Virus record (IMG/VR): IMGVR_UViG_3300017766_004165
Location: 4,655 to 68,654 of that record
Length of the DNA: 64,000 nucleotides
Source of the DNA: a virus
Direction: 5' to 3' (one strand)
Positions 9,214-53,219 of this stretch are shown here, in pieces. Each line of letters starts with the position of its first letter. Positions within the stretch are counted from its first letter, which is position 1. Under the pieces are notes generated by a model. The model did no database searches and was not told the DNA's origin. It saw nothing but the letters and a program-made list of their open reading frames with translations. The translations under genes and the position numbers were made by a program.

Positions 9214-9984
9214 TTATGCCGCAATTTTTTCTGTTCTTTCTTCTTCAATTTCTTCGCTTTCCTGAACGCTTGCACTTTTATTTTCCTGGAGGATGACATA
9301 TTCTTTTAATTGTTGTGGGTAATCTGATTGCCAAAATTGACCTGAATCAATATCCATAATACTTAAAGGCCCACCTTTTCCAGATCCAGTATCTACGTTT
9401 ATAACTCCACCACCATGAAAAGGTTTATAAAGTCCGTAATACAAAGTTGGTGTATGGCCAATAAAAACTTTTTTATAGTTTGTTAAAGGTGTTTTATTCT
9501 TATCAATTAGAGCTTTATAAGCTGCATTAACAAGATCCCTATCCCAAACAAGATAAGATTCTGATTGCATTTCAATAGGCTCTGAAGGATCAAATCCACC
9601 ATGTACAAACAAAATGTTATCATCTGTCACATAATAAGGTTTCATCTTATCAAAAATCTTAATAGTGTAATACTCTTGTTGATCTTCAGTAAGATTATTC
9701 CATTTATTTTCTGTTGCTTGAACTCCATTAGCAGGATAAAGTGCAAGAATGTTTTTCTTACCTTTTATATATTGTATAAAAGTCTGGTCATGATTTCCTA
9801 AAATAAGAACTAAATTCTTGATTTTCAGTAATTCATCCATACATAAGAAAGGTTCTGGCCCTCTATCTACAATATCTCCTACTTGAATTAAAAGGTCATT
9901 TTTATAATCAAAGTTAACTTTTTCAAGCACTTCTTTAAGATACCCAACTTCTCCGTGAATATCTCCTAATACAAATCTTCTCAT
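9214..9984 (-). CDS. PPP-family Ser/Thr protein phosphatase (lambda PPase / ApaH-like)
   Basis: GDIHGE, VGDIVDRGPE, LGNHD and VHGG match the PPP phosphatase signature. Confidence 0.7.
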   Translation of the reverse strand: MRRFVLGDIHGEVGYLKEVLEKVNFDYKNDLLIQVGDIVDRGPEPFLCMDELLKIKNLVLILGNHDQTFIQYIKGKKNILALYPANGVQATENKWNNLTEDQQEYYTIKIFDKMKPYYVTDDNILFVHGGFDPSEPIEMQSESYLVWDRDLVNAAYKALIDKNKTPLTNYKKVFIGHTPTLYYGLYKPFHGGGVINVDTGSGKGGPLSIMDIDSGQFWQSDYPQQLKEYVILQENKSASVQESEEIEEERTEKIAA

Positions 9985-17578: not shown

Positions 17579-19330
17579 TTAGTTTGTACCTCTTGGCATC
17601 ACTTCTTCGAAAGATTTGCCATTATAATAAACACATTGTCCTTCTTCTACGAACTTTTGTCCAGCACCTTTTGTGTTTTTAAAATAACTGAAATCAGTAC
17701 CAACTCCGATAAAGAATGCTTTGTGAGTGTAGCTATCTACATGGCTCTCACCGTCACTCAAAACTACGGAATTATTTCCAGTTTTCAAAATATTTTTCAA
17801 AACATATTCGATGTCTGTACCACCTCTTGCGGCCATCATTAAGATAGACATATCGGTGTTCATGATCTTCTTTGGCCTGTCCTCAAATTCGTAAAGGTCT
17901 CCTAAGATTCCTAACTCCTTCATTTGCATAGCCAAAGATTTTGCCAGATCAATCCTGGGAACACCAGCAAGATCTCCTCCGCAACCAGCTCCCATAGAAC
18001 CAGAGCAATCCACGTAGAGATCAAACTTTCCTATATATCTTCTTTCTGTTACAGAAAGATCAAAAAGTCTGGAGTTACGGAAAAGTGGATGTAAAAACTC
18101 AAGTCCGTTGATGTCAAGTAGCTGATCAGCTTCAAAAAGTTCTACATCATTTTGGATACATTTCTGAGAGAAGTAGTTAGTAGTTCCATTAAGAATCTTT
18201 TCTACTGCTTTGAGAATCTTATCTTTAGATGTACTAAGAGCTTGTAATGATTTCCTGATAGAATCAAGATTATTTAAGTTCTTAATGATTTCCCTTTTTT
18301 CACTTTCTGGCATCTCTTCATCATTTTCAATGTCAACACCTACATCTCTCAGTTTTTCAAGCTTTTCATCAGCTTTTTTCAAAGCCTGTTCAAGCTCTTT
18401 TTGAGATTGTTTAGAGTTAAGCTTATCTACCATGTCTTTGAGATCTTTATCCATCTGATCAGCAGCTTCCTGGGACATATCTGTTTGAGACCCTCTTCCA
18501 GATTTTCCAGAGTTATTAGCAGCTCCCTGATGATTATTATCTCCATCTCTATTACTTTGCTCATCTCCCTTAGAAGGGCTTTCAATATCATCATCAATAT
18601 CCTCATCTGGTGGTGTAAATCCTTCTTCATCCTCATCATCTGGTGGATTTTTTGAAGGTTTACCCTTACCTTGTCCTGGTTGTTGAGGTTGATTTGGATC
18701 TGGGGGCTGGTTTCCACCTGGATTTGGCTTATTAGAACCTCCTCCTGGCGGGGGTGGCATTCCTCCTCCACCACCTTGATTACAGTTATTAAGGTTATCC
18801 TGGAGCTTCTGTTGCTGTTCTGGAGGCATTTCCATAAACTTCTTATACAAGAACTGTCCGATTGCCTCTGTATAGACATAAGAGCCTATATGTGAGTTAT
18901 TTGTGACTATCTTAAGAAGACTATTATTAATGCTATCCAAAATACCAAACTTAACTTCATTAGTTTTATCCAATCCTTCAAATTTCATTCTGTTAGATGG
19001 ATTATAATATAATGAATATAAATCATTTACAAGGTGAGTTGGCAGAAACTTAGAATAATTCTCTTCAATTTTTGGGTCAATATTCTTTAAAGCTGATTTT
19101 ACAACTTTCTCAACCTGTTCGTTGACCATCATGCTATCAAGAGGGTGAAGGTATGGTTGTACTATTTCCCTCTTTTTAAAGATCTGTATTCTGTCGTTAT
19201 TAGTGCCAGAAAAATTAAACTTAGACATCATATTACTGACGCCCTGATTAAAATGTCCTCCACCAACACCTTTTCCACCTTTTTGGATCTTTCTAAGAAG
19301 GGTATCCGCCTTCACTTTAGCTTTTGCCAT
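17579..19330 (-). CDS. VWA-domain protein with a Gly/Pro-rich and acidic linker (CobT-like)
   Basis: C-terminal DLYVDCSGSMG is a MIDAS DxSxS motif; central low-complexity GGGGMPPPPGGG... and DDEDEEG; located next to the AAA+ ATPase. Confidence 0.55.
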   Translation of the reverse strand: MAKAKVKADTLLRKIQKGGKGVGGGHFNQGVSNMMSKFNFSGTNNDRIQIFKKREIVQPYLHPLDSMMVNEQVEKVVKSALKNIDPKIEENYSKFLPTHLVNDLYSLYYNPSNRMKFEGLDKTNEVKFGILDSINNSLLKIVTNNSHIGSYVYTEAIGQFLYKKFMEMPPEQQQKLQDNLNNCNQGGGGGMPPPPGGGSNKPNPGGNQPPDPNQPQQPGQGKGKPSKNPPDDEDEEGFTPPDEDIDDDIESPSKGDEQSNRDGDNNHQGAANNSGKSGRGSQTDMSQEAADQMDKDLKDMVDKLNSKQSQKELEQALKKADEKLEKLRDVGVDIENDEEMPESEKREIIKNLNNLDSIRKSLQALSTSKDKILKAVEKILNGTTNYFSQKCIQNDVELFEADQLLDINGLEFLHPLFRNSRLFDLSVTERRYIGKFDLYVDCSGSMGAGCGGDLAGVPRIDLAKSLAMQMKELGILGDLYEFEDRPKKIMNTDMSILMMAARGGTDIEYVLKNILKTGNNSVVLSDGESHVDSYTHKAFFIGVGTDFSYFKNTKGAGQKFVEEGQCVYYNGKSFEEVMPRGTN

Positions 19331-19355: not shown

Positions 19356-20519
19356 TTATTCCTGATCACCTAAATCGTCAGTTTCAACTTCAATTTTGTA
19401 GTATGGGTGATTCTGCATAGCAGCTTCAACAAGTTGTTTAAGTTCATTGATATCAGAGTTACTGAATTTACCCTGTCCAGCAAAGTTTGCAACCATAGTT
19501 TCAATCTCTATCATTGCTTTTTCGATTTGCTGCTCATTACTCATACCAGAAATCATATCAACTTTATCCATAATAGCTCTTTTTTCAGAACTAAGAAGTT
19601 CTTTAGATAATTTTTCTGCTGTGGTTTTATCAACCAACAGTTCACAAGCTTTAATAAGAGCTTTATCAACAGAGCAGTTATATACCAGGCTGATAGCTCT
19701 GGCCATCATAGGTACAAAAGACAAAGTTCTGTCAGAACAAGCTTTATACGCTACATTGATGAATTTTTCCAGCTTATCAGGTGCAACTACTACTTTCTCA
19801 ATTTGTTCTTTAGTAGGAACATTGATCTTAACTTTAGTAGAATAATTCTTATCACCACCTTTATAGTATTTGATAAGTTCACCTGCTGCAAGCCTGTTAA
19901 TGGTCATTTTAAGTGCAAATCTGTCCCAGAAAGGTGAACCCACCTCATCTTTAGGAATTTCGTTACAAGTAGCAACAAAAAGCTTCCATTTACACTTCTT
20001 TTTCTCTTTACCATTAAACAGCACTCTTTCATTCATAATACCCAATAAAGCATTTCTGAGTGCAGAGCTGGCTTTATCTACTTCATTAATAATCACAGTA
20101 TCAGCTTCAGTAATATGAGAATCAATCTCATATTTATTTTCTGTTACCAGTTTTTCCAGGTTAACTACACCTTTAATTTCAGAAGACTTTGTACCTTCAT
20201 CTGTTTCCAGCATAAATACACCTTCCTCATTGAAATGTTGAATATGATCAGGATCAGTAAGATCAAACATTCCTTTAGTATAGTCAGTTACGATTTTAGT
20301 CTTACCTGTACCTGGAGGGCCAACAAATAAGATACCCAGTTGTAAAGCTTCTGCTAAAGACAAAAGTCTGAAAGCTTCTTCTTTACCCAACAGGGATGTT
20401 TCAAAGGTTCTGTGACCTTTTATTTCGATTGATTTTTTCATGTTAATAGGGTTTCCAACTTCAATTTGGGTTTTACCTTTTTCAAGGTCTTTTTTTACTG
20501 CTTCAGCTATTTGGGTCAT
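19356..20519 (-). CDS. AAA+ ATPase (MoxR/CobS-like)
   Basis: Walker A LFVGPPGTGKTK and a DE-containing Walker B region; 387 aa. Confidence 0.65.
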   Translation of the reverse strand: MTQIAEAVKKDLEKGKTQIEVGNPINMKKSIEIKGHRTFETSLLGKEEAFRLLSLAEALQLGILFVGPPGTGKTKIVTDYTKGMFDLTDPDHIQHFNEEGVFMLETDEGTKSSEIKGVVNLEKLVTENKYEIDSHITEADTVIINEVDKASSALRNALLGIMNERVLFNGKEKKKCKWKLFVATCNEIPKDEVGSPFWDRFALKMTINRLAAGELIKYYKGGDKNYSTKVKINVPTKEQIEKVVVAPDKLEKFINVAYKACSDRTLSFVPMMARAISLVYNCSVDKALIKACELLVDKTTAEKLSKELLSSEKRAIMDKVDMISGMSNEQQIEKAMIEIETMVANFAGQGKFSNSDINELKQLVEAAMQNHPYYKIEVETDDLGDQE

Positions 20520-33763: not shown

Positions 33764-34606
33764 TTACTGTTTATTTACATTAAAGAAAGGAACTGCTCCA
33801 CTTCCACCCATTATAGTACTGGGCAGTACGCCATTCCATTTCAATGCTTTCGTATATTCAACAAGTTGAGGTGATTCTCTTAAAGCTTCATTTTTAGCTC
33901 TCATAGAGTTGGCTTCAGCTAAAGCTCCCATCATAGTTACAACAGAATCTTTTCTGGCATTAATAATATCAATTTCAGCATTGGCCTGTGTTACTTGTTG
34001 CTGAGCTTTAGCAGCCTGAGCTTCTTGTACAGCTTTTGCTTTATTACTAATAGCAGCTTTTAAGTTTGGATCAGGTATAAGATTGGCTGTAAACTGGGTA
34101 ACCTGAAAAAACGGTTTCAGATCATGATTCAGTTTATTTAAAATTGCTGCATCATAACCTGCTTGGTTATTCAAAATACTATCAACAGTGTATGTATTCG
34201 TAACTTCTCTTATAGCTGTGGTCATGGATGTTTTTAAGAATCCATTTTCCAAATTACTAAGAGAAACTCTGTATTTTTGAAACATTTCACCTACATTACC
34301 TGCTTCCAGGTTATAGTTAAATGTCGGATGTACAGTGAATACAGTTCCACCTTTTGATGGTACTTCGTAAGACTCATACTCTTTGTGTTGCTGGAAAGTC
34401 GGAAATTCATAAACTTTTTGAGCCAATCTCCAGTAGAAACAGAAACCTGTTACATACTCAGTTTTAGCTACACCCTGGTTTCCACCAGTCATGTTTACTT
34501 TAATACCTACGTTACCAGCATCAATTCTTTCACATCCTACAAAGGCTGAACCCAAAATAGCAAAGAAAGCGATTGCTCCCAAAATCAATTTAAATTTCGT
34601 ACTCAT
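33764..34606 (-). CDS. SPFH/band-7 domain lipoprotein (HflK/C-like)
   Basis: N-terminal signal peptide with a lipobox-like FVGC; C-terminal AQAAKAQQQVTQANAEIDIINARKDS...AEANSMRAKNEA is typical of the SPFH Ala/Glu-rich coiled coil. Confidence 0.5.
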   Translation of the reverse strand: MSTKFKLILGAIAFFAILGSAFVGCERIDAGNVGIKVNMTGGNQGVAKTEYVTGFCFYWRLAQKVYEFPTFQQHKEYESYEVPSKGGTVFTVHPTFNYNLEAGNVGEMFQKYRVSLSNLENGFLKTSMTTAIREVTNTYTVDSILNNQAGYDAAILNKLNHDLKPFFQVTQFTANLIPDPNLKAAISNKAKAVQEAQAAKAQQQVTQANAEIDIINARKDSVVTMMGALAEANSMRAKNEALRESPQLVEYTKALKWNGVLPSTIMGGSGAVPFFNVNKQ

Positions 34607-39888: not shown

Positions 39889-40608
39889 TTAAGGGTTTTT
39901 ACTTGGTTGTACTTCTTGCACAGTTGAAGCATTGATCAGTTTAGGAAGTATTTTAAACATTCCTGTTTTCTTTTTAGGAGTTGGTACTGAAGTTACTGCT
40001 ACTGAAGCAGGAACAATAGGATTTGAAGCTGTATGTCCATTTCCTCTTAAAATATGAGACATTTGTTGCTTCATGGCATCTTCCTGAGAAGTTCTTTCAT
40101 TAATATAATAATGAGGAACTTGAGGCTCATCCAGCTTATAGTTATCCCAGTCTTTTTTGTACCCTTCATCCAGGTAATTCTGAAGTGAATTGATGTATCT
40201 TTTATGGATTGCATGATAGGTTTGTTCAGAGATTACTTTTTGATTAGTAACTATAAACTTACCATCTTTGATAAAACCTATTCTGTGTTCCCAGGCTGGA
40301 TGTGCTTTTACTTCTTTAACAGCTTCAATGCCATTATCAGGGTCAGCTTCCACACCAGGAACTTCTACAACATTCCACAACTTATGAAAATGTACAAATT
40401 GTGTAACGTCTTGTATCTGGGGTCTTACCAGCAGTGTCCATTCTGAGGTATCCAGAACATCAAAATCACCAACTTTTTTGGTTTCTTTCTTCTTAAATTT
40501 GAAGATTGGTGTTTCTTCTGACATAATGTTTGTATTAGTTGTTAATAATGCGTTCATATCCCTTTTTGATCTTTTCACCCATCTTTTTATTGATGAACTT
40601 ATAAGCAT
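39889..40608 (-). CDS. hypothetical protein
   Basis: 239-aa ORF; the true start is probably the internal Met near 40524. Confidence 0.35.
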   Translation of the reverse strand: MLISSSIKRWVKRSKRDMNALLTTNTNIMSEETPIFKFKKKETKKVGDFDVLDTSEWTLLVRPQIQDVTQFVHFHKLWNVVEVPGVEADPDNGIEAVKEVKAHPAWEHRIGFIKDGKFIVTNQKVISEQTYHAIHKRYINSLQNYLDEGYKKDWDNYKLDEPQVPHYYINERTSQEDAMKQQMSHILRGNGHTASNPIVPASVAVTSVPTPKKKTGMFKILPKLINASTVQEVQPSKNP

Positions 40609-40864
40609 CTTCCAGGGTTTGAAATCCGTGTCTTTTAGTATTTCCAGTAGTATTCATTTTACCATAATGAATAGATACCGTAAAATTTGTTTGCTCCGAA
40701 TTTCCTAATCTGTGTAATTGGATGATATAGAATTTGTTATGACCAGCTTCTTTATGTTCCAATTTTACATGATCTATACCAACATTTCTTTTCTTTTCAA
40801 AGCTCAGTTTAAAACCGAACCCTGAAAAAGTATCAGGTTGGCGTCCAGTCTTTTTTGAGGCCAT
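40535..40864 (-). CDS. WGR-domain protein
   Basis: HNKFYIIQLHRLGNSEQTNFTVSIHYGKMNTTGNTKRHGFQTLEDAYKFINKKMGEKIKKGY fits the WGR pattern (FY.IQL... W/H-G-R/K... KxxKGY). Confidence 0.5.
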   Translation of the reverse strand: MASKKTGRQPDTFSGFGFKLSFEKKRNVGIDHVKLEHKEAGHNKFYIIQLHRLGNSEQTNFTVSIHYGKMNTTGNTKRHGFQTLEDAYKFINKKMGEKIKKGYERIINN

Positions 40865-46973: not shown

Positions 46974-47456
46974 TTAAACTTTTGAAAGATAAACGTAGGC
47001 TTTGTGGTATTTTTCAATACGAGCAAAGTCAGCTTTGGTTAATCCTTTTAACCTGAAGGGTTGCGAATTATGTTCTAAATCAGCCATTTTTACGGCCCTC
47101 GCATCTTCATTTGTGGATATTTCTGCAATATACTCTTCATATGTTTTTACAGTTGGATCATGCGTAAGCAACATTAAAGGTATTATAATAGCATCACCAA
47201 AACCTTTTCTTCTCAGGTCTGCAAAATCCCAATCAGTGTCTTCTACTAAATCATGTAAAATTCCGATAATTCTACGTGTATCAGTAGTTTGTTTATCCAT
47301 AACATAAAGACAATGAAGGATATATGGCTCTCCTGATTTGTCCAGCTTATCTTTAAAAGCTTTAGCAACAATGCTAATAGCATGAGCTAATTGCTTTTTT
47401 GAGGACATGATCTTTGGTTTTAACGTGAACGTATATGAGATCCAGGTTCGTTGCAA
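46974..47456 (-). CDS. RelA/SpoT-family HD-domain (p)ppGpp hydrolase (small alarmone hydrolase, Mesh1-like)
   Basis: SGEPYILHCLYVM, GILHDLVEDT and VKMADLEHN parallel SpoT segments GEPYITHP, LLHDVIEDT and IKLADRTHN. The probable start is the internal Met (MSSKK, about 47408). Confidence 0.65.
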   Translation of the reverse strand: MQRTWISYTFTLKPKIMSSKKQLAHAISIVAKAFKDKLDKSGEPYILHCLYVMDKQTTDTRRIIGILHDLVEDTDWDFADLRRKGFGDAIIIPLMLLTHDPTVKTYEEYIAEISTNEDARAVKMADLEHNSQPFRLKGLTKADFARIEKYHKAYVYLSKV

Positions 47457-47788: not shown

Positions 47789-47867
47789 TATCTTGGTTTT
47801 AATAATTTAAAAATAAAGCTGCATTAAAATTAATCAATGCAGCTTTTATTACAAATTTAAATCTTGT

Positions 47868-48563
47868 TTAGAAATTCACACCAGCAGTAGAGCCAGAGCT
47901 TGAGGATACAGACTGAGAAACAACTCCCATCTGTTTTCTGATCTCTGATGCACTGTTGCCTACTGTTACCAGACATTTAGTGTGATCCAGGCCCATTTCA
48001 GTACAAGCTTCCTGGAAATAATGTGGTTGACCCACACCCAGCATATTGATTGTAAATGAACTGGCCCAGGCTTCATTACGTCTGAGATCTTCAACGAGCT
48101 TTTTGATCTTTGTTGCTGCACCACTGGATGATGAATTATCTTCACCATCAGTTGATATGAAAATGGCTGTTCTCACATCAATACCCTGTTCTTCAAGATC
48201 TTTTCTGTACGCAATTGCGTGTTCAAGACCTTGTAATACAGCATCATACAATGCTGTACCTCTGCCGGTATTATGCACATCAAAATAATCATCCTGCACA
48301 TTCAGGATAGGCATAAAGCCTGATTTATGTTCTACTTTCTCACAAAAAGTGATTGCTTTTACAACAATATCATCTTTTCTGTGAGAGTTTTTAAGATCCT
48401 GGATGAATACATCTTTGGCAATAGTATTCATAGTTGTTTCATATGAACTAATGCTGGGAGATACGTCATTAATGACAATAAACATAACTACCATAGATGT
48501 CATATTAGCCAAAGAATTAGGATCAAAGTTTTGGCTGTTATTAAAGTTTTGGAAACCTTCCAT
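47868..48563 (-). CDS. VWA-domain protein
   Basis: IVINDVSPSI (DxSxS MIDAS) and FISTDGEDN (TDGxxN) motifs. Confidence 0.45.
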   Translation of the reverse strand: MEGFQNFNNSQNFDPNSLANMTSMVVMFIVINDVSPSISSYETTMNTIAKDVFIQDLKNSHRKDDIVVKAITFCEKVEHKSGFMPILNVQDDYFDVHNTGRGTALYDAVLQGLEHAIAYRKDLEEQGIDVRTAIFISTDGEDNSSSSGAATKIKKLVEDLRRNEAWASSFTINMLGVGQPHYFQEACTEMGLDHTKCLVTVGNSASEIRKQMGVVSQSVSSSSGSTAGVNF

Positions 48564-48646
48564 TGTAAATGGTTTGTGTTAAACAAGAGAGCTATCATGG
48601 ACATCCGAGGGATCTCTAAGCTCTCTTGTTAACTATTTAAAGAATA

Positions 48647-49435
48647 TTATACCTTATCGCTTTTCAGGACAGTAACACCCTGCTTTACAGCATCAGCATA
48701 CATACCATCTACATAATTGTAGAAGTCCTGGGGTAATCCAACTACATTGCTCATACAGTCTTCCAGCACTACAATTTTACTTGCAAGCTGAGGAGCTATT
48801 TGAAGCATTTGTCTCAGGGAATTGGCAACACAATGGGTTCTGGCTTGTCCAGCTAAATATACCACATCATGTGCATTCAGGGTTTGAAATACACCCTGGT
48901 TCACCTGTGTTGACGGATCTTCATTCAACGGCACATTGGCTCTGAAAATACCAAAATGCTCAGTATAAGGATTTACACCTTTATTGATGAAATTTACCCA
49001 TTTAAGGTTCTTATTCATCCATTCACGAAGGGCTGCAAAAAACATGGGATGCAAAGCCTGTCCTTCAGTACCAATCAGACAATGTTCTGGCCATATTGTA
49101 TGCTTAAATTCACCATTAGCTTCCAGGGCTTGCACATATTTTAATGATCTTGCTGGGTCAATTCTGGCTACATATCTGCCATTTAAAATATCATCTGAGG
49201 ACATTTGTGTAAATATGTCAACAGAGTCTCCATTTGGTTTTTCCCACCAGCTTGGGTGAGATATATCCAGTGAATAATGTGAGTCGAGAGAAGCAAATAT
49301 CGTAGTAGGGTTAATCTTTTTGATAAATGCTGCAATACGCTCAGTGTCTTTTACTGCTCCAGGTACAGACAATGCTGCACCAGAAATGTCATGAAAGTCA
49401 TTTTGACCGTCAATGACGAGAAGGACGCTTTTCAT
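48647..49435 (-). CDS. isochorismatase-family hydrolase, PncA-like nicotinamidase
   Basis: LLVIDGQNDFHDISGAALSVPGA parallels PncA ALIIVDVQNDFCEGGSLAV; candidate catalytic Cys in ARTHCVANS (compare ATDYCV). Confidence 0.55.
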   Translation of the reverse strand: MKSVLLVIDGQNDFHDISGAALSVPGAVKDTERIAAFIKKINPTTIFASLDSHYSLDISHPSWWEKPNGDSVDIFTQMSSDDILNGRYVARIDPARSLKYVQALEANGEFKHTIWPEHCLIGTEGQALHPMFFAALREWMNKNLKWVNFINKGVNPYTEHFGIFRANVPLNEDPSTQVNQGVFQTLNAHDVVYLAGQARTHCVANSLRQMLQIAPQLASKIVVLEDCMSNVVGLPQDFYNYVDGMYADAVKQGVTVLKSDKV

Positions 49436-49608
49436 AATTTTTTATTGTTTTGTTTTGTAAAGTGATTAGTGAGGATATAAGTCATAAGGAGAATCATATT
49501 CTTCTCCACATTTAGGACAAATATCTGTTAAATCATCTTTATAAATATTAAATGGATGAAATAACATACACCAAATTCTTTTTAAAATATAGTATATAAA
49601 TTTTTTCA

Positions 49609-51228
49609 TCATTTAGTATTTAAAAGATAAAGTGTTTTGTTCTCCAATAACAGAATTCCAGCTTTCGTGTAAAAGAGTCTGCTATCTCTTGTACATATAG
49701 GACATTCAAGCCTGGTTAGAAGCTGAAGGTTCATATAAACATCCACATATCCATCTTCAGGAAGCATGATAGTACCTCCTAATGCAACAGCAAAATGTGG
49801 TAAGTAATCAAGATCTAAGACTTTATGGTTGTTTGCATCTTTTACATATCTTACCTGATATTCAACACTATTTTTTCCTTTGATTTCTAAAGCAACATAT
49901 TCTTTGCAATAAAAACCATCTTTAGTTCCATTTGGAACTGGAATCATAGCATATCTATTCAAATAAGGCACATTAAGATATTTTTGAGAACCAAAATTCT
50001 GGATTAATCCGGTTCTTTTAACAATTGATTTAGCAAATACAGGTGTATTAGTGTTATCTATACCACCACCAAGCTGATTATTAAGATCATAATTCCATTG
50101 TATGTCTCTATCATACTCTATTACAGTTAGAAATCCATTATTGTAATAGAATATAGGATTATGCAAAACATACATCTTGCCTGTTTGTGAGAATAGATCG
50201 TCTCCTACTCTAATGGCATGATTACCACTATTACTAGGAAACATTTCATCACAATCAAAGCGTTTAACTTCTCTTGTGACTTTCTGTATCTTAGCTTCAT
50301 GTAAACACCATGTAATACCAGCTTTAATAGCTATATACTCATCACAAACATGAATGTCTGTAATATTATCGTATAAAGCTCTGATAGACAAAGCATTAGA
50401 TGTGGTTACTTGCTGTTTTATAACAGTTGATACAGGCACATGAACACCTGAAAGACTAACTAAGTATCTTCTACCACTATTGAAAATATCACTGAATTGT
50501 TTAAGCAAATCACCAGTGGGAGCTTCATATAATGGTGGAATTTTAATACCAGTTATTTTACTGAGTATAGATTTATGAGCTTTAACTCTCATTTCCAGGG
50601 ACTCTTTATTACCAGGTACAACCCATTTATAGGGATGACAAAATGTTGTAGTCCAAAATGCTAATACATCATAAGCATAGACATCAGTTTGTTCATTAAT
50701 AGCAGTCGTAGTCCAATCTCTTATGTCATCTAATAGAACACCACTATGGGTATTTGTTGGAGTTTGAAAACTGTCTACATCCACAAAGATTATATCTCCT
50801 TGTGTATTAAAGAACAAATTATATTGGTTAAGATCACCAACCACAATTTGATGATTATGTATGTGTTCTAAAGCCATTTTAAGCTTGGTCATTATCTTGA
50901 ATTTCAATGCTTTATCAATATTATTTGCTCCACAAAATCCTTTATTAAAGAGATTGTTGAACAAAAAATACTTATTAAAGTCCACATATTGCATATCAAA
51001 ACCTATAACTTTGAGTGTTTTGTTGATATAAATATCAATAGGTTTAATAAACATTGGCCCTAATGTAGATAATGTAACCAAATGATCTGCAAATTTACTG
51101 TCTCTGAGCTTGTGGTACACTTTAACCACTTTGTTTTTGTCTGAAGGATGCTCAAATATTTTCCCTTCACCACCAGCAGCAATCTCTCGGTGCTTAGTGA
51201 AATCTGACACATTAGCTGTCTTTACCAT
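49609..51228 (-). CDS. Ser/Thr protein kinase-like protein
   Basis: Gly-rich loop AAGGEGKIF followed by KVVKVY; catalytic-loop-like HNHQIVVGDLNQYNLFF; DFG-like FVDVDSF; 539 aa. Confidence 0.5.
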   Translation of the reverse strand: MVKTANVSDFTKHREIAAGGEGKIFEHPSDKNKVVKVYHKLRDSKFADHLVTLSTLGPMFIKPIDIYINKTLKVIGFDMQYVDFNKYFLFNNLFNKGFCGANNIDKALKFKIMTKLKMALEHIHNHQIVVGDLNQYNLFFNTQGDIIFVDVDSFQTPTNTHSGVLLDDIRDWTTTAINEQTDVYAYDVLAFWTTTFCHPYKWVVPGNKESLEMRVKAHKSILSKITGIKIPPLYEAPTGDLLKQFSDIFNSGRRYLVSLSGVHVPVSTVIKQQVTTSNALSIRALYDNITDIHVCDEYIAIKAGITWCLHEAKIQKVTREVKRFDCDEMFPSNSGNHAIRVGDDLFSQTGKMYVLHNPIFYYNNGFLTVIEYDRDIQWNYDLNNQLGGGIDNTNTPVFAKSIVKRTGLIQNFGSQKYLNVPYLNRYAMIPVPNGTKDGFYCKEYVALEIKGKNSVEYQVRYVKDANNHKVLDLDYLPHFAVALGGTIMLPEDGYVDVYMNLQLLTRLECPICTRDSRLFYTKAGILLLENKTLYLLNTK

Positions 51229-51907
51229 AACTTACAATTGTGAGATCATCAGTTAATGAAAACTTATCTCTTTTAATAAGATTCCACATACGTTCAAGAT
51301 AATTCTTGCTTGTAGGTGGATGGAATAACAGCTTATTCGGATCAACAGTAGCATTTTGTTGCATAGCACTTCTACTAATCCTGGTAATACCATCAGAACA
51401 TATCATAAATCTCTCTACATCATAATATGTCATAGAAGGATATTTCTTTAGATATTCATCAAAATCAGTAGGATTTTTATAAATATGATAACCTAGATAA
51501 TCAGGAGTATTATTTTGATCAACAATATATTCCACATCATTAATGTAATAATAACCATCACCAAATACTCTGATATTCAAAATATTATCAATTTTATTAT
51601 AATGAAAAAGTATAACCGTAGCTAAAAGATTCATTTCTTCAAGACCAAGAACTCCAGATAGAGCTAATAACCTCAATTTCATTTCTCTTAAAACATTATC
51701 ATTTACACTATTTCCACTTGCTACTTGTTCAAAAGCATAGCAATATGCTTGAGAAGCAAAATGAGATTTAATACCAGTACTACATCCATCAGATATAATA
51801 CCATCTATAAAATTCTCATTTTCAACAACTAATACACTGTCTTCACATGAATTGTGATGGTCAGCTCTGACATTTAAGGTTGCTATCATTTTTCTATGAT
51901 TTGCCAA
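51212..51907 (-). CDS. PP2C-like Ser/Thr phosphatase
   Basis: EDSVLVV, ISDGCSTG (compare DGHGG), FGDGYYY and CSDG resemble PP2C/SpoIIE metal-binding motifs; overlaps the kinase gene by 17 nt. Confidence 0.45.
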   Translation of the reverse strand: MANHRKMIATLNVRADHHNSCEDSVLVVENENFIDGIISDGCSTGIKSHFASQAYCYAFEQVASGNSVNDNVLREMKLRLLALSGVLGLEEMNLLATVILFHYNKIDNILNIRVFGDGYYYINDVEYIVDQNNTPDYLGYHIYKNPTDFDEYLKKYPSMTYYDVERFMICSDGITRISRSAMQQNATVDPNKLLFHPPTSKNYLERMWNLIKRDKFSLTDDLTIVSYGKDS

Positions 51908-52227
51908 CTGTTTGATGTATAAGTTTTTTTGATTCTTTTTTTAAATTCCACCACATTATTTGATTTCTTTTTCTTTGTTTTACTCCAGGGCCAGGGTTTA
52001 TATTCAATAATAGAATCATCAGTGATTTCATTTATATCATATGTACCTGTATCTAAAGATAAACCTAATTGTGATGCTTCACCGGTTACTTTAATCCAAC
52101 CATCAGGACTTATTTCAATTTCAACATTATAGTGTTTATGGTATGTACTAATAGCTGTACTATCAATAATTAACTGGCCTTTATTTGATTGAATATCAGC
52201 TACTTCAAAAAATTTGTTTTTCATCAT
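51886..52227 (-). CDS. possible FHA-like small protein
   Basis: LIIDSTAISTYHKHYNVEI...DGWIKVTGEASQLGLSLDTG loosely follows the FHA pattern (SxxH ... G..NGT); weak. Confidence 0.25.
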   Translation of the reverse strand: MMKNKFFEVADIQSNKGQLIIDSTAISTYHKHYNVEIEISPDGWIKVTGEASQLGLSLDTGTYDINEITDDSIIEYKPWPWSKTKKKKSNNVVEFKKRIKKTYTSNSWQIIEK

Positions 52228-52445
52228 GATTCTTTTAGATGATTGGTAATTTTGATAGTAAAAACACTATTTCTTTTTAATAGGTTTTTTAGACAAAGCT
52301 TTTGTTTTTGTTATGGTTAAAGAAGATTGTGAAACTTCATTATCTTCCATTTTATCCCAAAACAAAGTTTCAGCACCTTTTTTACTAGAAGCTGTTACTT
52401 TAGCACTAAAGGTTGCTTTTACGAGATATTCTGATAATTGTGGCA

Positions 52446-52916
52446 TTAGCTTTCTTTTAAATGGTTAGTAATTTCGGTTGTTGATTGAAATCTCTTAATA
52501 TCTGGTATTACAAAATGCTCAGTATTACCACCATATACGATAGCTTTACCACCATATATAGTATCACTATGCTTAAATATTCTTATTAAGCTGTTTTCTT
52601 TACCAGAAATCATTCTGATAGCATCAGACATTTCTGATAACTCATCAAATACCATAACACCAGTTACAGATTTAAGATTATCAACCATATAAGCTCTATC
52701 CATTTCATTAATCAATGGACTTTTCTTTTTATGTATTTGGACAAGCCTATCTGAATCCAAAAACACATATAATTCTTTGCATTGTCTTTTACATTTATTT
52801 AGATACTCAACATGAAGAGGATGTAAAAGATCAAAACAGCCAGATGTAACACCAATAAGATTATTCTCACTGGCTAATACAAACTGACTGAAATCTTCAG
52901 TGTTATAAAATACCAT
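52446..52916 (-). CDS. cytidylyltransferase-like nucleotidyltransferase (HxGH family; NMN/NaMN adenylyltransferase candidate)
   Basis: GVTSGCFDLLHPLHVEYL is a (T/H)xGH motif (GxFDxxHxxH) typical of PF01467 enzymes, including NadD/NMNAT; 156 aa. Confidence 0.5.
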   Translation of the reverse strand: MVFYNTEDFSQFVLASENNLIGVTSGCFDLLHPLHVEYLNKCKRQCKELYVFLDSDRLVQIHKKKSPLINEMDRAYMVDNLKSVTGVMVFDELSEMSDAIRMISGKENSLIRIFKHSDTIYGGKAIVYGGNTEHFVIPDIKRFQSTTEITNHLKES

Positions 52917-53219
52917 AAATAATGATTTAAAAGTTAAAGGGTAGCCATTACAGCTACCCTTATAAGGTAAAAAACTGGGTGAACTGATTCAGTCCAGATA
53001 AACCCTTTTAGTGCTGTTCTCTGGGGAAGCACGTTTTTCATTGTTGGAAACAATATCTTAATATCTTTGTGTAATAGTTATTACTAATACATAAACTACA
53101 TAATCTCTTGTAGAACTAGAATGTACTACTTTATAACCATCTTCCAAATATTTTCCTAATGTTTCTAAAGAGCTTGGATTTCTAGGATCAACTGAAAGGA
53201 CTTTATATTTTTGCATATA

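Follow-up and report, generated by a model that had tools for sequence, protein, structure and literature searches.

Organization of the locus

The DNA analyzed here is a 64-kb stretch of viral sequence, referred to below as the window. An ORF check placed all five ORFs of the 47868-52227 block on the minus strand, at the coordinates reported earlier (Table 1). As judged from the sequence, these ORFs appear to belong to one minus-strand transcription unit that extends from about 52916 to 47868 between two terminator-like hairpins, of which the first is probably the upstream limit of the unit and the second its end. Neighboring genes overlap by 4 nt (113-aa ORF and PP2C) and by 17 nt (PP2C and kinase). 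The earlier note had the phosphatase gene directly following the kinase gene with an overlap; the overlap stands, but the order is reversed, with PP2C preceding the kinase in transcription, and the vWA gene lies two genes downstream of the kinase rather than two genes upstream. The PP2C ORF was first listed as 51907..51212, but both the gene caller and the alignment favor an ATG start at 51889 (225 aa) over the TTG at 51907 (231 aa).

Table 1. Features of the locus, in the direction of transcription.
Feature	Position	Strand	Evidence or remark
Terminator-like hairpin, 11-bp stem and T tract	52937..52961	-	just 5' of the cytidylyltransferase gene
Cytidylyl/adenylyl-transferase-like protein, 156 aa	52446..52916	-	Pfam PF01467 1e-9; TIGR02199 1e-18
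59-aa ORF, no assigned function	52267..52446	-	ORF/gene calling
113-aa all-beta protein ("FHA-like" ORF)	51886..52227	-	small phage family, not FHA
PP2C/PPM-type Ser/Thr phosphatase, 225 aa (ATG)	51212..51889	-	profiles, alignments
Kinase and propeller protein, 539 aa	51228..49609	-	ORF, profiles, model
Kinase domain, aa 1-260 of the 539-aa protein	50449..51228	-	profiles, alignment, model
Seven-bladed beta-propeller, aa 280-539 of the kinase protein	49609..50391, stop codon included	-	AF2, Foldseek
Predicted nicotinamidase-type cysteine hydrolase, 262 aa	48647..49435	-	profiles, alignment
TerY/YegL-type vWA protein, 231 aa	47868..48563	-	alignment, JGI name; PF00092 in homologues
Strong terminator-like hairpin, 13-bp stem and T tract	47815..47846	-	22 nt past the vWA stop codon
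Small alarmone hydrolase, HD domain, (p)ppApp/(p)ppGpp-hydrolase-like	46974..47408	-	PHROG 990 6e-44; PDB 7smg 3e-22

The first gene of the unit encodes the 156-aa cytidylyltransferase-like protein, whose nearest PDB matches are RfaE-II, ECT and TagD-type enzymes; an identity as NMN adenylyltransferase was considered and rejected on these matches, the closest relatives not being NMNAT-like. Synteny associates this gene only loosely with the cassette (7 loci). The 59-aa ORF found no homologue across related loci, and the alarmone hydrolase gene, a neighbor of the cassette in 4 loci, falls outside its core.

The 113-aa ORF, read previously as FHA-like, is a real, all-beta phage protein with about 40 family representatives. 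Neither this ORF nor any one of the 39 family members searched matched the Pfam FHA profile, the family alignment displays no FHA signature (only Gly17 and Glu94 are near-invariant), and structure comparison of the confident model found no FHA match. Its family profile matched no ORF in any related locus, so the protein stands outside the conserved cassette. The FHA identity is thus refuted at the level of sequence, fold and synteny.

Kinase, phosphatase and vWA proteins

The kinase assignment of the 539-aa protein, of Hanks-like type, is confirmed, and the protein continues C-terminally into a seven-bladed beta-propeller. Profiles, catalytic residues and an AF2 model (pLDDT 92) with its Foldseek matches agree on the kinase-like call made from the sequence. 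The alignment reveals conservation of the glycine loop (Gly19/Gly20/Gly22), Lys36, the catalytic Asp132, Asn137, the DFG-equivalent Asp150 and the subdomain-IX Asp182; the eukaryotic-like C-lobe is complete and the catalytic residues are intact. The motifs VGDLNQYN and DVDS of the kinase, like DGCSTG and GDG of the phosphatase, fall in invariant or near-invariant columns of the homologues. The kinase lacks the conserved alpha-C glutamate, and its catalytic loop, GDLNQYN, resembles that of RIO, Bud32 and Kdo-kinase types; because of these two features, its substrate may be something other than a protein. In BFVD, a Myoviridae kinase matches the 539-aa protein over its full length. The propeller, which had gone unmentioned, is modeled as seven four-stranded groups (28 strands), and its Foldseek matches include a CORVET propeller and the Hsv2 PROPPIN.

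The 225/231-aa protein is confirmed as a PP2C that retains every metal-binding Asp motif: Asp23, Asp40-Gly41, Asp117, Asp172-Gly173 and Asp220-Asp221 do not vary among 43 sequences. The protein scores slightly below the Pfam PP2C_2 cutoff (23.1 bits against 24), its homologues carry PF13672, and the PP2C profile matches RsbX and SpoIIE; the PP2C-like call is upheld on these grounds. The TerY/YegL-type vWA assignment of the 231-aa protein is likewise confirmed, in agreement with the earlier VWA call, and its MIDAS motif (Asp33-x-Ser35-x-Ser37, Thr103, Asp139) is intact. Its homologues carry PF00092, and JGI names it YegL, which we take to be COG4245, the TerY-type vWA group. The protein ends in a conserved, Ser-rich tail whose last residue is Phe. 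This tail is also kept at a Variovorax locus that has neither kinase nor PP2C within about 5 kb, so that its conservation does not mark it as a phospho-acceptor.

The nicotinamidase-type enzyme

The ORF of 262 aa that separates the kinase and vWA genes, passed over earlier as a spacer, is predicted from its sequence to be a nicotinamidase-type enzyme. All sequences aligned (43/43) have the catalytic triad Asp9-Lys152-Cys202 and the metal ligands Asp51-His53-His118. The best PDB match of the family profile is yeast Pnc1 (2h0r, 1.8e-12); among the best eight matches, seven chains are nicotinamidases or pyrazinamidases and none is an isochorismatase. In the profile alignment, the WPxHC motif of the family pairs with the metal-ligand His of Pnc1, and JGI also calls the protein nicotinamidase.

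Compared with PncA and Pnc1 of the Preiss-Handler route, which is NrtR-regulated in many bacteria (PMC2330246), the protein shares the Asp-Lys-Cys triad, the Asp-His-His site and WPxHC, and in bacteria an NrtR gene adjacent to its own; its best matches are nicotinamidases. It exceeds them in length by about 50-60 aa, an insertion of roughly 50 aa lying between residues ~60 and ~112, and it scores far under the NCBIfam nicotinamidase equivalog cutoff (32 bits against 174); its real substrate could be another amide. It is also paired with vWA, usually together with kinase and PP2C, and has no pncB adjacent.

Conservation and genomic context of the cassette

A four-gene cassette of nicotinamidase, vWA, PP2C and kinase occurs in about 45 loci, including three unannotated huge-phage genomes and Bacteroidales chromosomes, and one homologue lies on a 6.4-Mb contig. 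The conserved signalling block proposed earlier holds for kinase, PP2C and vWA and fails for its FHA member, the fourth constant member being the nicotinamidase gene. In 24 non-self loci, nicotinamidase and vWA are present in the identical 17, a co-occurrence of 17/17 in this first set; no gene accompanies vWA more tightly than the nicotinamidase does. A second set comprised 80 IMG/VR loci fetched by the nicotinamidase profile only. All four genes are present in 31 of them, and vWA in 34/39 of the less divergent nicotinamidase matches (L026-L064); the partners are absent for 46/80 of these viral homologues, mainly one 31%-identity subfamily. Two gene orders are found, PP2C-STK-iso-vWA in the window (iso being the nicotinamidase-type gene) versus iso-vWA-PP2C-STK elsewhere, and the pairs iso-vWA and PP2C-STK are intact in both.

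The surroundings of the cassette outside the window include NAD-related genes. On Bacteroidales chromosomes, it lies directly 3' of a gene for NrtR (Nudix plus NrtR winged-helix), which regulates NAD salvage genes, pncA included, in response to ADP-ribose (PMC2330246). Only the nicotinamidase-vWA pair is found on a Variovorax plasmid, with a divergently oriented NrtR homologue adjacent, set among NUDIX, macro-domain, nucleoside-deoxyribosyltransferase-like and NAD-kinase genes. Recurrent extra neighbors are NrtR (10 loci), the NAD+-consuming Tpt1/KptA (5), and nucleoside-deoxyribosyltransferase-like and NAD-synthase-like genes (4 loci each); in one locus (L062), a NadE gene sits between vWA and PP2C. 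The 64-kb window itself encodes no PncB, NadD or NadE. Because the cassette also stands beside an NAD-sensing regulator in Bacteroidota chromosomes, a link between phospho-signalling and NAD+/nicotinamide is probable.

Relation to known systems and alternative readings

The analysis supports a phage-borne, eukaryotic-like kinase/PP2C pair linked to vWA as a real and conserved unit that resembles the TerY-P (TerY-phosphorylation) triad of Anantharaman, Iyer and Aravind 2012, as summarized in PMC10542128 and PMC4978471. Both place a TerY/YegL-type MIDAS vWA, a PP2C and a Ser/Thr kinase in one operon, with a predicted phosphorylation-dependent switch around the vWA protein. In those summaries, the TerY-P kinase has a C-terminal zinc ribbon, unlike the seven-bladed propeller found here, and against their picture the cassette adds a constant fourth gene, the partner of vWA, has no McrBC/CoCoNuT or DNA-processing genes nearby (Ter genes only near L002), and resides in large phages and beside NrtR in Bacteroidales.

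The cassette could be stand-alone TerY-P-type defence or superinfection exclusion, in which the triad would sense a competing phage and trigger abortive infection. The nicotinamidase would be the effector and might, for example, deprive rival phages of the nicotinamide required for NARP-type NAD+ reconstitution. TerY-P is defined by the trio of vWA, PP2C and STK, and one form of it protects against T7-like phages (Gao et al. 2020, as relayed in PMC7699616 and PMC10542128); mobile and viral contigs carry the cassette, and on one related phage contig (L002), TerC and a Ter-associated PRTase_3 lie at a distance of about 7 kb. We nevertheless consider this reading unlikely. The PADLOC models gave no match to vWA or PP2C, either in the window or in bacterial relatives, and the kinases draw generic kinase-domain matches only. 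The kinase of the Gao et al. 2020 system is, in these accounts, fused to an OB fold and not to a propeller, and the Bacteroidales copies occupy a stable, syntenic chromosomal locus, with housekeeping genes and the NAD regulator alongside, outside defence islands.

A takeover role like that of T7 gp0.7, to which the earlier note had compared the kinase, is less plausible still. Here, the kinase would phosphorylate host proteins, PP2C would limit or time its action, and nicotinamidase and vWA would be mere neighbors. The complete C-lobe with intact catalytic residues, the accessory region with host-directed functions nearby such as the alarmone hydrolase, and the solo kinase homologues of bacteria (L013, L014, L020, L022) fit such a role, but the four genes travel together through two gene orders in phage and bacterial genomes, and bacterial chromosomes, where host takeover is meaningless, hold the same cassette. 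No profile or homology search found similarity to gp0.7, and the comparison is not borne out.

We regard as very improbable a Ter-type metal or tellurite stress switch, in which the MIDAS vWA (TerY) would sense metal ions, kinase and PP2C would relay the signal, and NAD would be uninvolved. The YegL assignment by JGI, the Ter genes near the cassette in L002 and the first description of the triad in a Ter context (according to PMC10542128) speak for it; however, no TerD, TerC, TerB or PRTase genes occur in the window or in related loci other than L002, the commonest extra neighbors are NAD/ADP-ribose-related and not Ter, and the constant partner is a nicotinamidase. STK-PP2C-FHA neighborhoods are common in bacteria and a small all-beta ORF does overlap the PP2C start, but we give almost no credence to the STK/PP2C/FHA/vWA unit of the earlier note with the 113-aa protein as phospho-threonine reader, since the profile, signature, model and synteny tests all stand against it.

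The MoxR-vWA-beta-propeller ternary conflict systems (Pfam PF20030 context) also join a vWA and a beta-propeller, as a presumptive peptide-sensing pair. In the cassette, the propeller is instead fused to the kinase, and PP2C and nicotinamidase take the place of MoxR. A bpMoxR ATPase gene lies elsewhere in the window (19356-20519), and none of the loci compared has a MoxR gene in or near the cassette.

A proposed phospho-switch coupled to nicotinamide salvage

We favor, with a probability of roughly 0.55, a reading of the cassette as a TerY-P-like phospho-switch coupled to nicotinamide/NAD+ salvage. It is built on observed gene content, conserved catalytic residues, the kinase fold, conservation of the cassette and the NAD-related neighborhoods; who phosphorylates whom, the real substrate of the enzyme and the benefit to the phage are the parts that we infer. 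Kinase and PP2C would act in opposition as a phosphorylation switch, with the propeller as sensor or docking domain of the kinase and the vWA protein as adaptor or target, through the MIDAS site, the Ser-rich C-terminal tail or both. Control of the partner nicotinamidase would be the output of the switch; this enzyme would convert nicotinamide, the cleavage product of NAD+, to nicotinate. The phage would thereby alter the nicotinamide/NAD+ pool of an infected Bacteroidota-like host, for example by steering the nicotinamide that NAD+-consuming enzymes or NADase defences set free toward salvage by the deamidated (Preiss-Handler) route.

An anti-defence role is possible, the sole pointer to it being the NAD-related gene neighborhoods. 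The NARP1, NARP2 and NARP3 pathways (10.1101/2024.02.11.579819; PMC13464706) offer a parallel, in that phage genes act on NAD+ breakdown products, as is predicted for the cassette, and NAD+-depleting immunity is a plausible context for both. The cassette differs in lacking Adps, Namat, Nampt, Nmnat, PnuC and NadR; it would deamidate nicotinamide and has a signalling layer absent from NARPs.

Relative to TerY-P as covered by the sources cited above, the vWA-PP2C-STK unit is already known in bacteria, and the propeller-fused kinase and the nicotinamidase are new. With these additions, the cassette probably ties phospho-signalling to NAD+/nicotinamide handling in infection.

Gene organization of the cassette

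The window is AT-rich (GC about 33%), and its minus strand is the source of almost all transcription. It carries a phage-type replication/nucleotide module with a family-A DNA polymerase, a DnaB-like helicase, a primase zinc finger, and RecA, together with an RNA ligase, an RNR-like protein, and a MoxR-type ATPase. There is no close cultured relative: no GenBank phage has a DNA polymerase more than 47% identical to that of the window, and none matched the 6-kb region by megablast. The cassette genes and their upstream neighbors look like one transcription unit on sequence grounds, because successive reading frames overlap (by 4 nt between the 113-aa ORF and the PP2C start, and by 17 nt between PP2C and the kinase start) and terminator-like hairpins flank the array, such sites numbering 7 in the scan against 2.4 expected. 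The earlier note had the coordinates of these reading frames right and their order wrong: PP2C precedes the kinase, and the vWA gene lies downstream of it rather than upstream. An NMN/NaMN adenylyltransferase identity, by which an NAD pathway would have been extended, was considered for the cytidylyltransferase-like protein that opens the unit and found no support, its PDB relatives being of the ECT, RfaE, and TagD types.

Positions in the window of the putative transcription unit and of other features discussed in the text
Feature	Coordinates	Strand	Remarks
Putative transcription unit	52916..47868	minus	Gene order 5'->3': cytidylyltransferase-like (156 aa), 59-aa ORF, 113-aa ORF, PP2C-like, 539 aa, 262 aa, vWA-like (231 aa)
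Terminator-like hairpin	52961-52937	minus	Just upstream of the first gene (cytidylyltransferase-like)
Terminator-like hairpin	47846-47815	minus	13-bp stem; 22 nt past the vWA stop
Small HD-domain alarmone hydrolase	46974-47408	minus	Within the transcription unit directly downstream of the cassette, one 122-aa ORF between
109-aa product (WGR)	~40535-40864	minus	About 7 kb from the cassette
SPFH/Band_7 protein	33764-34606	minus	4e-19
MoxR-type AAA+ ATPase	19356-20519	minus	Pfam bpMoxR, 1e-24; inside the replication module, about 28 kb from the cassette
583-aa ORF	17579-19330	minus	Follows the MoxR-type ATPase; no match in Pfam and PHROG searches
PNKP-like match	9340-9972		Marginal (tblastn)

Kinase-propeller protein

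By its motifs and predicted fold, the 539-aa protein is a member of the Hanks-type kinase superfamily with an atypical alpha-C helix and catalytic loop. Across 48 distinct sequences, Asp132, the DFG-equivalent Asp150, and the subdomain IX Asp182 are invariant (48/48 each), while Gly19, Gly20, and Asn137 are each kept in 47, Gly22 in 41, and the beta-3 Lys36 in 45. In the family profile, GDLNQYN and DVD line up with the HRDLKPEN and DFG of RSK2, and subdomain IX aligns too; compared with RDLKPxN, the catalytic loop has a RIO/Bud32/Kdo-kinase flavor. The predicted alpha-C helix (residues 46-53, consensus FxxHLxxLS) has no conserved acidic residue in the role of the alpha-C glutamate, the partner of the beta-3 lysine. 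Pfam scores for the N-terminal part of the window protein fall below cutoff (Pkinase 14.6 bits vs 31.7, YrbL 22.9 vs 31.5, RIO1 17.8 vs 22), and distant bacterial homologues (P0106-P0110) carry PF00069.

The family comprises 110 clusters, nearly all of about 530-565 aa and alignable over their full length. In the AlphaFold2 model built with the family alignment (pLDDT 92), residues 1-260 match EGFR, Aurora B, IRAK4, and BRAF by Foldseek with target-normalised TM scores of 0.5-0.6, giving a bilobal fold with a full C-lobe, and residues 280-539 are modeled as a propeller with seven blades of four strands each (28 strands), matching those of a CORVET subunit and the PROPPIN Hsv2. BFVD holds one full-length structural homologue, from an uncultured Myoviridae and auto-named Ser/Thr kinase. 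Because the catalytic Lys and Asp, whose loss from the alignment was to count against a kinase, are both conserved and the predicted fold matches, the kinase assignment of the earlier note stands. On a 100-kb phage contig (L024 1138-2211), the kinase gene is truncated to 357 aa, without the N-lobe and the propeller end, beside intact PP2C, nicotinamidase, and vWA genes, which may reflect either gene decay or an artefact of assembly or frameshift. In a Chlorobi-labelled MAG (L014 8382-9934), a solo kinase-propeller homologue directly follows a SIR2-family gene and recR.

PP2C and vWA proteins

The PP2C phosphatase proposed previously is borne out at the level of motifs: all five Asp-containing metal-binding motifs (xED, DGxxG, GDG, (S/T)DG, and DD) are invariant in 43 sequences, with Asp23, Asp40-Gly41, Asp117, Asp172-Gly173, and Asp220-Asp221 each kept in 43/43. 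The window protein reaches 23.1 bits against PP2C_2 (cutoff 24) over nearly the whole domain, homologues carry PF13672, and the family profile matches RsbX at 4.7e-4 and SpoIIE weakly.

Assignment of the 231-aa protein as a vWA protein, also proposed previously, rests on its MIDAS motif and on Pfam-positive homologues. In the pattern DxSxS...T...D, Asp33, Ser37, Thr103, and Asp139 are conserved in 42/42 sequences, and Ser35 in 39/42 with Thr in the other 3. The only Pfam match of the window protein is VWA_CoxE at 11.3 bits, and a search of PDB chains with the family profile found nothing; PF00092 is present in homologues at 39-62% identity, named YegL by JGI, which we take to be COG4245, the TerY-type vWA group. 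Throughout the family the C terminus is a conserved, Ser-rich tail (...S-x-S-[IV]-S...) whose last residue is Phe in 39/42; this tail is a candidate phospho-acceptor or docking peptide. As a comparative test of whether the tail is lost without an adjacent kinase, we looked at the kinase-less Variovorax plasmid locus (L023), where it is kept, a result that neither supports nor disproves a phospho-acceptor role.

Nicotinamidase-type protein

The gene between the kinase and vWA genes had been overlooked in the earlier note; the unit envisaged there holds for kinase, PP2C, and vWA. By sequence, the 262-aa product of this gene is a cysteine hydrolase of the isochorismatase superfamily and of nicotinamidase type. 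The catalytic triad Asp9-Lys152-Cys202 and the metal ligands Asp51, His53, and His118 are each conserved in 43/43 sequences. Among the best eight PDB matches of the family profile, seven chains are named nicotinamidase or pyrazinamidase and none isochorismatase; the top match is Pnc1 (2h0r, 1.8e-12), followed by M. tuberculosis PncA, and WPEHC aligns to the WPVHC of Pnc1, which bears the third metal-ligand His. JGI names of the homologues likewise read nicotinamidase/pyrazinamidase. The window protein scores 32.1 bits against PRK11609 (NCBIfam equivalog cutoff 174) and 17.4 against Pfam Isochorismatase (cutoff 27), and an insertion of about 50 aa accounts for its greater length relative to PncA.

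Conservation of the four-gene cassette

Conservation was examined in two sets of loci. In the first, retrieved via the kinase with two further loci via the nicotinamidase and one via the vWA protein, 17 of the 24 non-self loci have the nicotinamidase gene, and exactly these have the vWA gene; PP2C is present in 19 and the kinase in 23. The second is an independent IMG/VR retrieval with the nicotinamidase profile: 31 of its 80 loci have all four genes and 3 more have three, and the remaining 46 have the enzyme alone, mostly as one near-identical subfamily at 31% identity. Within L026-L064, the loci with less divergent nicotinamidase matches, a vWA gene is found in 34/39. Two gene orders exist, PP2C-kinase-nicotinamidase-vWA in the clade of this phage and nicotinamidase-vWA-PP2C-kinase elsewhere, and the nicotinamidase-vWA and PP2C-kinase pairs are always preserved in both.

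The cassette is compact, with four genes in about 4 kb. It is widely distributed among uncultured large and huge phages as well as Bacteroidota, yet has no annotation in GenBank phage records. Only four such records contain cassette genes: three unannotated 'uncultured phage' genomes of 462-595 kb, each with all four, and a 6.5-kb faecal fragment.

Bacterial counterparts and NAD-related neighbors

In Bacteroidales MAG chromosomes, the cassette is found in conserved synteny, with an NrtR-family gene directly upstream of it; one homologue lies on a 6.4-Mb contig. The NrtR-family product combines Nudix and NrtR winged-helix domains (5e-27), and four loci share it at 80-83% identity. On a Variovorax plasmid, a nicotinamidase-vWA pair without kinase or PP2C is divergent from an NrtR homologue (36% identity, 1e-41) and sits among NUDIX, macro-domain, nucleoside-2-deoxyribosyltransferase-like, and NAD-kinase genes; a 207-aa neighbor showed no relation to the PP2C family by hhalign. 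NrtR proteins respond to ADP-ribose and repress genes for the synthesis and salvage of NAD, pncA among them (PMC2330246). The Variovorax layout is like that of nrtX-nrtY, an NrtR-regulated pair that Rodionov et al. (2008) described in Proteus, Hahella, Streptomyces, and Frankia, often as a divergon with nrtR, and to which they assigned no function (PMC2330246).

Clustering of all neighbors at about 50 cassette loci returned, besides the four core genes, NrtR (10 loci), cytidylyltransferase (7), DnaJ (6), Tpt1/KptA (5), which is an RNA 2'-phosphotransferase that consumes NAD+ and sets nicotinamide free, PNKP (4), deoxyribosyltransferase-like proteins (4), and NAD-synthase-like proteins (4), and at one locus (L062) a bona fide NadE lies between vWA and PP2C. 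The theme common to these recurrent neighbors is NAD+, ADP-ribose, and nicotinamide. At four loci (L034, L042, L043, and L063), an RNA-repair-like block (Tpt1/KptA, PNKP kinase-phosphatase-ligase, DnaJ) stands immediately upstream of nicotinamidase-vWA-PP2C-kinase; Tpt1 was found in L034, L043, and L063, and three of the four have an AAA ATPase gene after the kinase. The window itself has, by tblastn, no homologue of NadE, Tpt1, the deoxyribosyltransferase-like proteins, PNKP, DnaJ, or RlaP, except for the marginal PNKP-like match.

Other window genes near the cassette or related to it in domain content were recorded as well. The alarmone hydrolase has the (p)ppApp hydrolase 7smg as its best PDB relative (3e-22), matches PHROG 990, adjoins the cassette in 4 loci, and may counter alarmone-based toxins or defences. 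The 109-aa product has a precomputed Pfam WGR match (L004 14030-14359); WGR is a domain known from PARPs, making this product a possible further NAD/ADP-ribose-related element. Band_7 homologues occur near the cassette in L002, L007/L026, and L029, and one ORF in L038/L039 clusters with them. The bpMoxR family represents the MoxR of MoxR-vWA-beta-propeller ternary systems, and the cassette supplies its own vWA and beta-propeller.

A proposed TerY-P-like switch and its alternatives

TerY-P, as later papers outline it, is a triad of vWA, PP2C, and STK for which a switch based on phosphorylation and centred on the metal-binding vWA protein is predicted; one form of the triad has been shown to defend against phages (PMC10542128, PMC7699616). 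We read the cassette as a TerY-P variant because it encodes the same triad, but one that departs from the described systems in its propeller, in its missing Ter and restriction context, and in its added enzymatic partner. The described TerY-P kinase is fused to a C-terminal zinc ribbon, according to the 2012 definition of Anantharaman as relayed in PMC10542128, whereas the cassette kinase is predicted to end in the seven-bladed beta-propeller, with no Zn ribbon; its model likewise lacks the OB fold of the TerY-P defence system (Gao 2020). Beyond the triad, the cassette adds a constant partner of nicotinamidase type, encoded in this phage between kinase and vWA.

Our main reading, a plausible one, is therefore that the cassette couples a switch of the TerY-P kind to a nicotinamidase, with a functional tie to nicotinamide/NAD+ salvage. 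From genes that travel together in NAD-related neighborhoods, we infer that the kinase and PP2C would control the vWA protein, which would in turn control the nicotinamidase. The phage cassette, which has no NrtR, is presumably host-derived and manages the nicotinamide/NAD+ pool during infection. A more novel and less probable reading, to which we tentatively give a probability of about 0.3, goes further: the cassette may be a hitherto unrecognised, signaling-gated NAD+-conflict module of large phages. Its kinase-propeller, PP2C, and vWA proteins would sense the state of the infection or an immune cue, NADase activation for example, and would then switch on a dedicated nicotinamidase that reroutes nicotinamide into deamidated salvage or withholds it from competitors. 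Such a module would be a regulated counterpart to the NARP phage NAD+ reconstitution pathways used in counter-defence, and the NrtR-linked version in bacteria would be its ancestor or its mirror image.

Other readings fare less well. That the cassette is a phage-borne defence or exclusion system appears unlikely, given its bacterial chromosomal context and the missing defence-model matches: PADLOC models run against the window proteins and bacterial homologues gave no TerY-P-type or other system-level match, none of any kind for the vWA and PP2C proteins, and only generic kinase-domain matches. A gp0.7-style takeover kinase, acting on the host in its own right, is harder still to reconcile with the invariant four-gene linkage, and we consider it improbable. 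Slightly less probable again is a Ter-type metal switch, as Ter genes are absent from the window and most related loci, which lack DNA-processing and restriction genes too; the only Ter-type link seen is on a related 226-kb phage contig (L002 1-2122), with genes for TerC and a Ter-associated PRTase_3 at a distance of about 5-7 kb on the upstream side of the cassette.

The unit proposed in the earlier note, a conserved STK/PP2C/FHA/vWA block, is highly improbable in its FHA version, which is refuted as far as sequence, fold, and synteny can show. The 113-aa ORF taken for the FHA member belongs to a real small-protein family of about 40 representatives in an exhaustive HMMER search. None of these has a Pfam FHA match, the family alignment lacks the FHA signature (GR...SxxH...NG), and the 11-stranded sandwich fold expected of an FHA domain is not in evidence. 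The family profile found no such ORF in any related locus, including the closest relative (L005), which has an unrelated 109-aa gene in its place. The 113-aa ORF is not an FHA protein and does not belong to the conserved unit; kinase, PP2C, and vWA are conserved together, with the nicotinamidase in addition. Overall, the observation in that note is partly confirmed and its interpretation partly supported.

A central front in the conflict between bacteria and phages is the depletion of NAD+ and its reversal, and the phage responses known so far, NARP1-3, consist of enzymes alone; the literature searched yielded no phage NAD-linked function under a kinase/phosphatase switch. If the main reading is true, large phages would place an NAD-linked function under a eukaryotic-like kinase/phosphatase switch, and the TerY-P triad, long established but mechanistically opaque, would gain a concrete enzymatic partner and, with it, a testable output.
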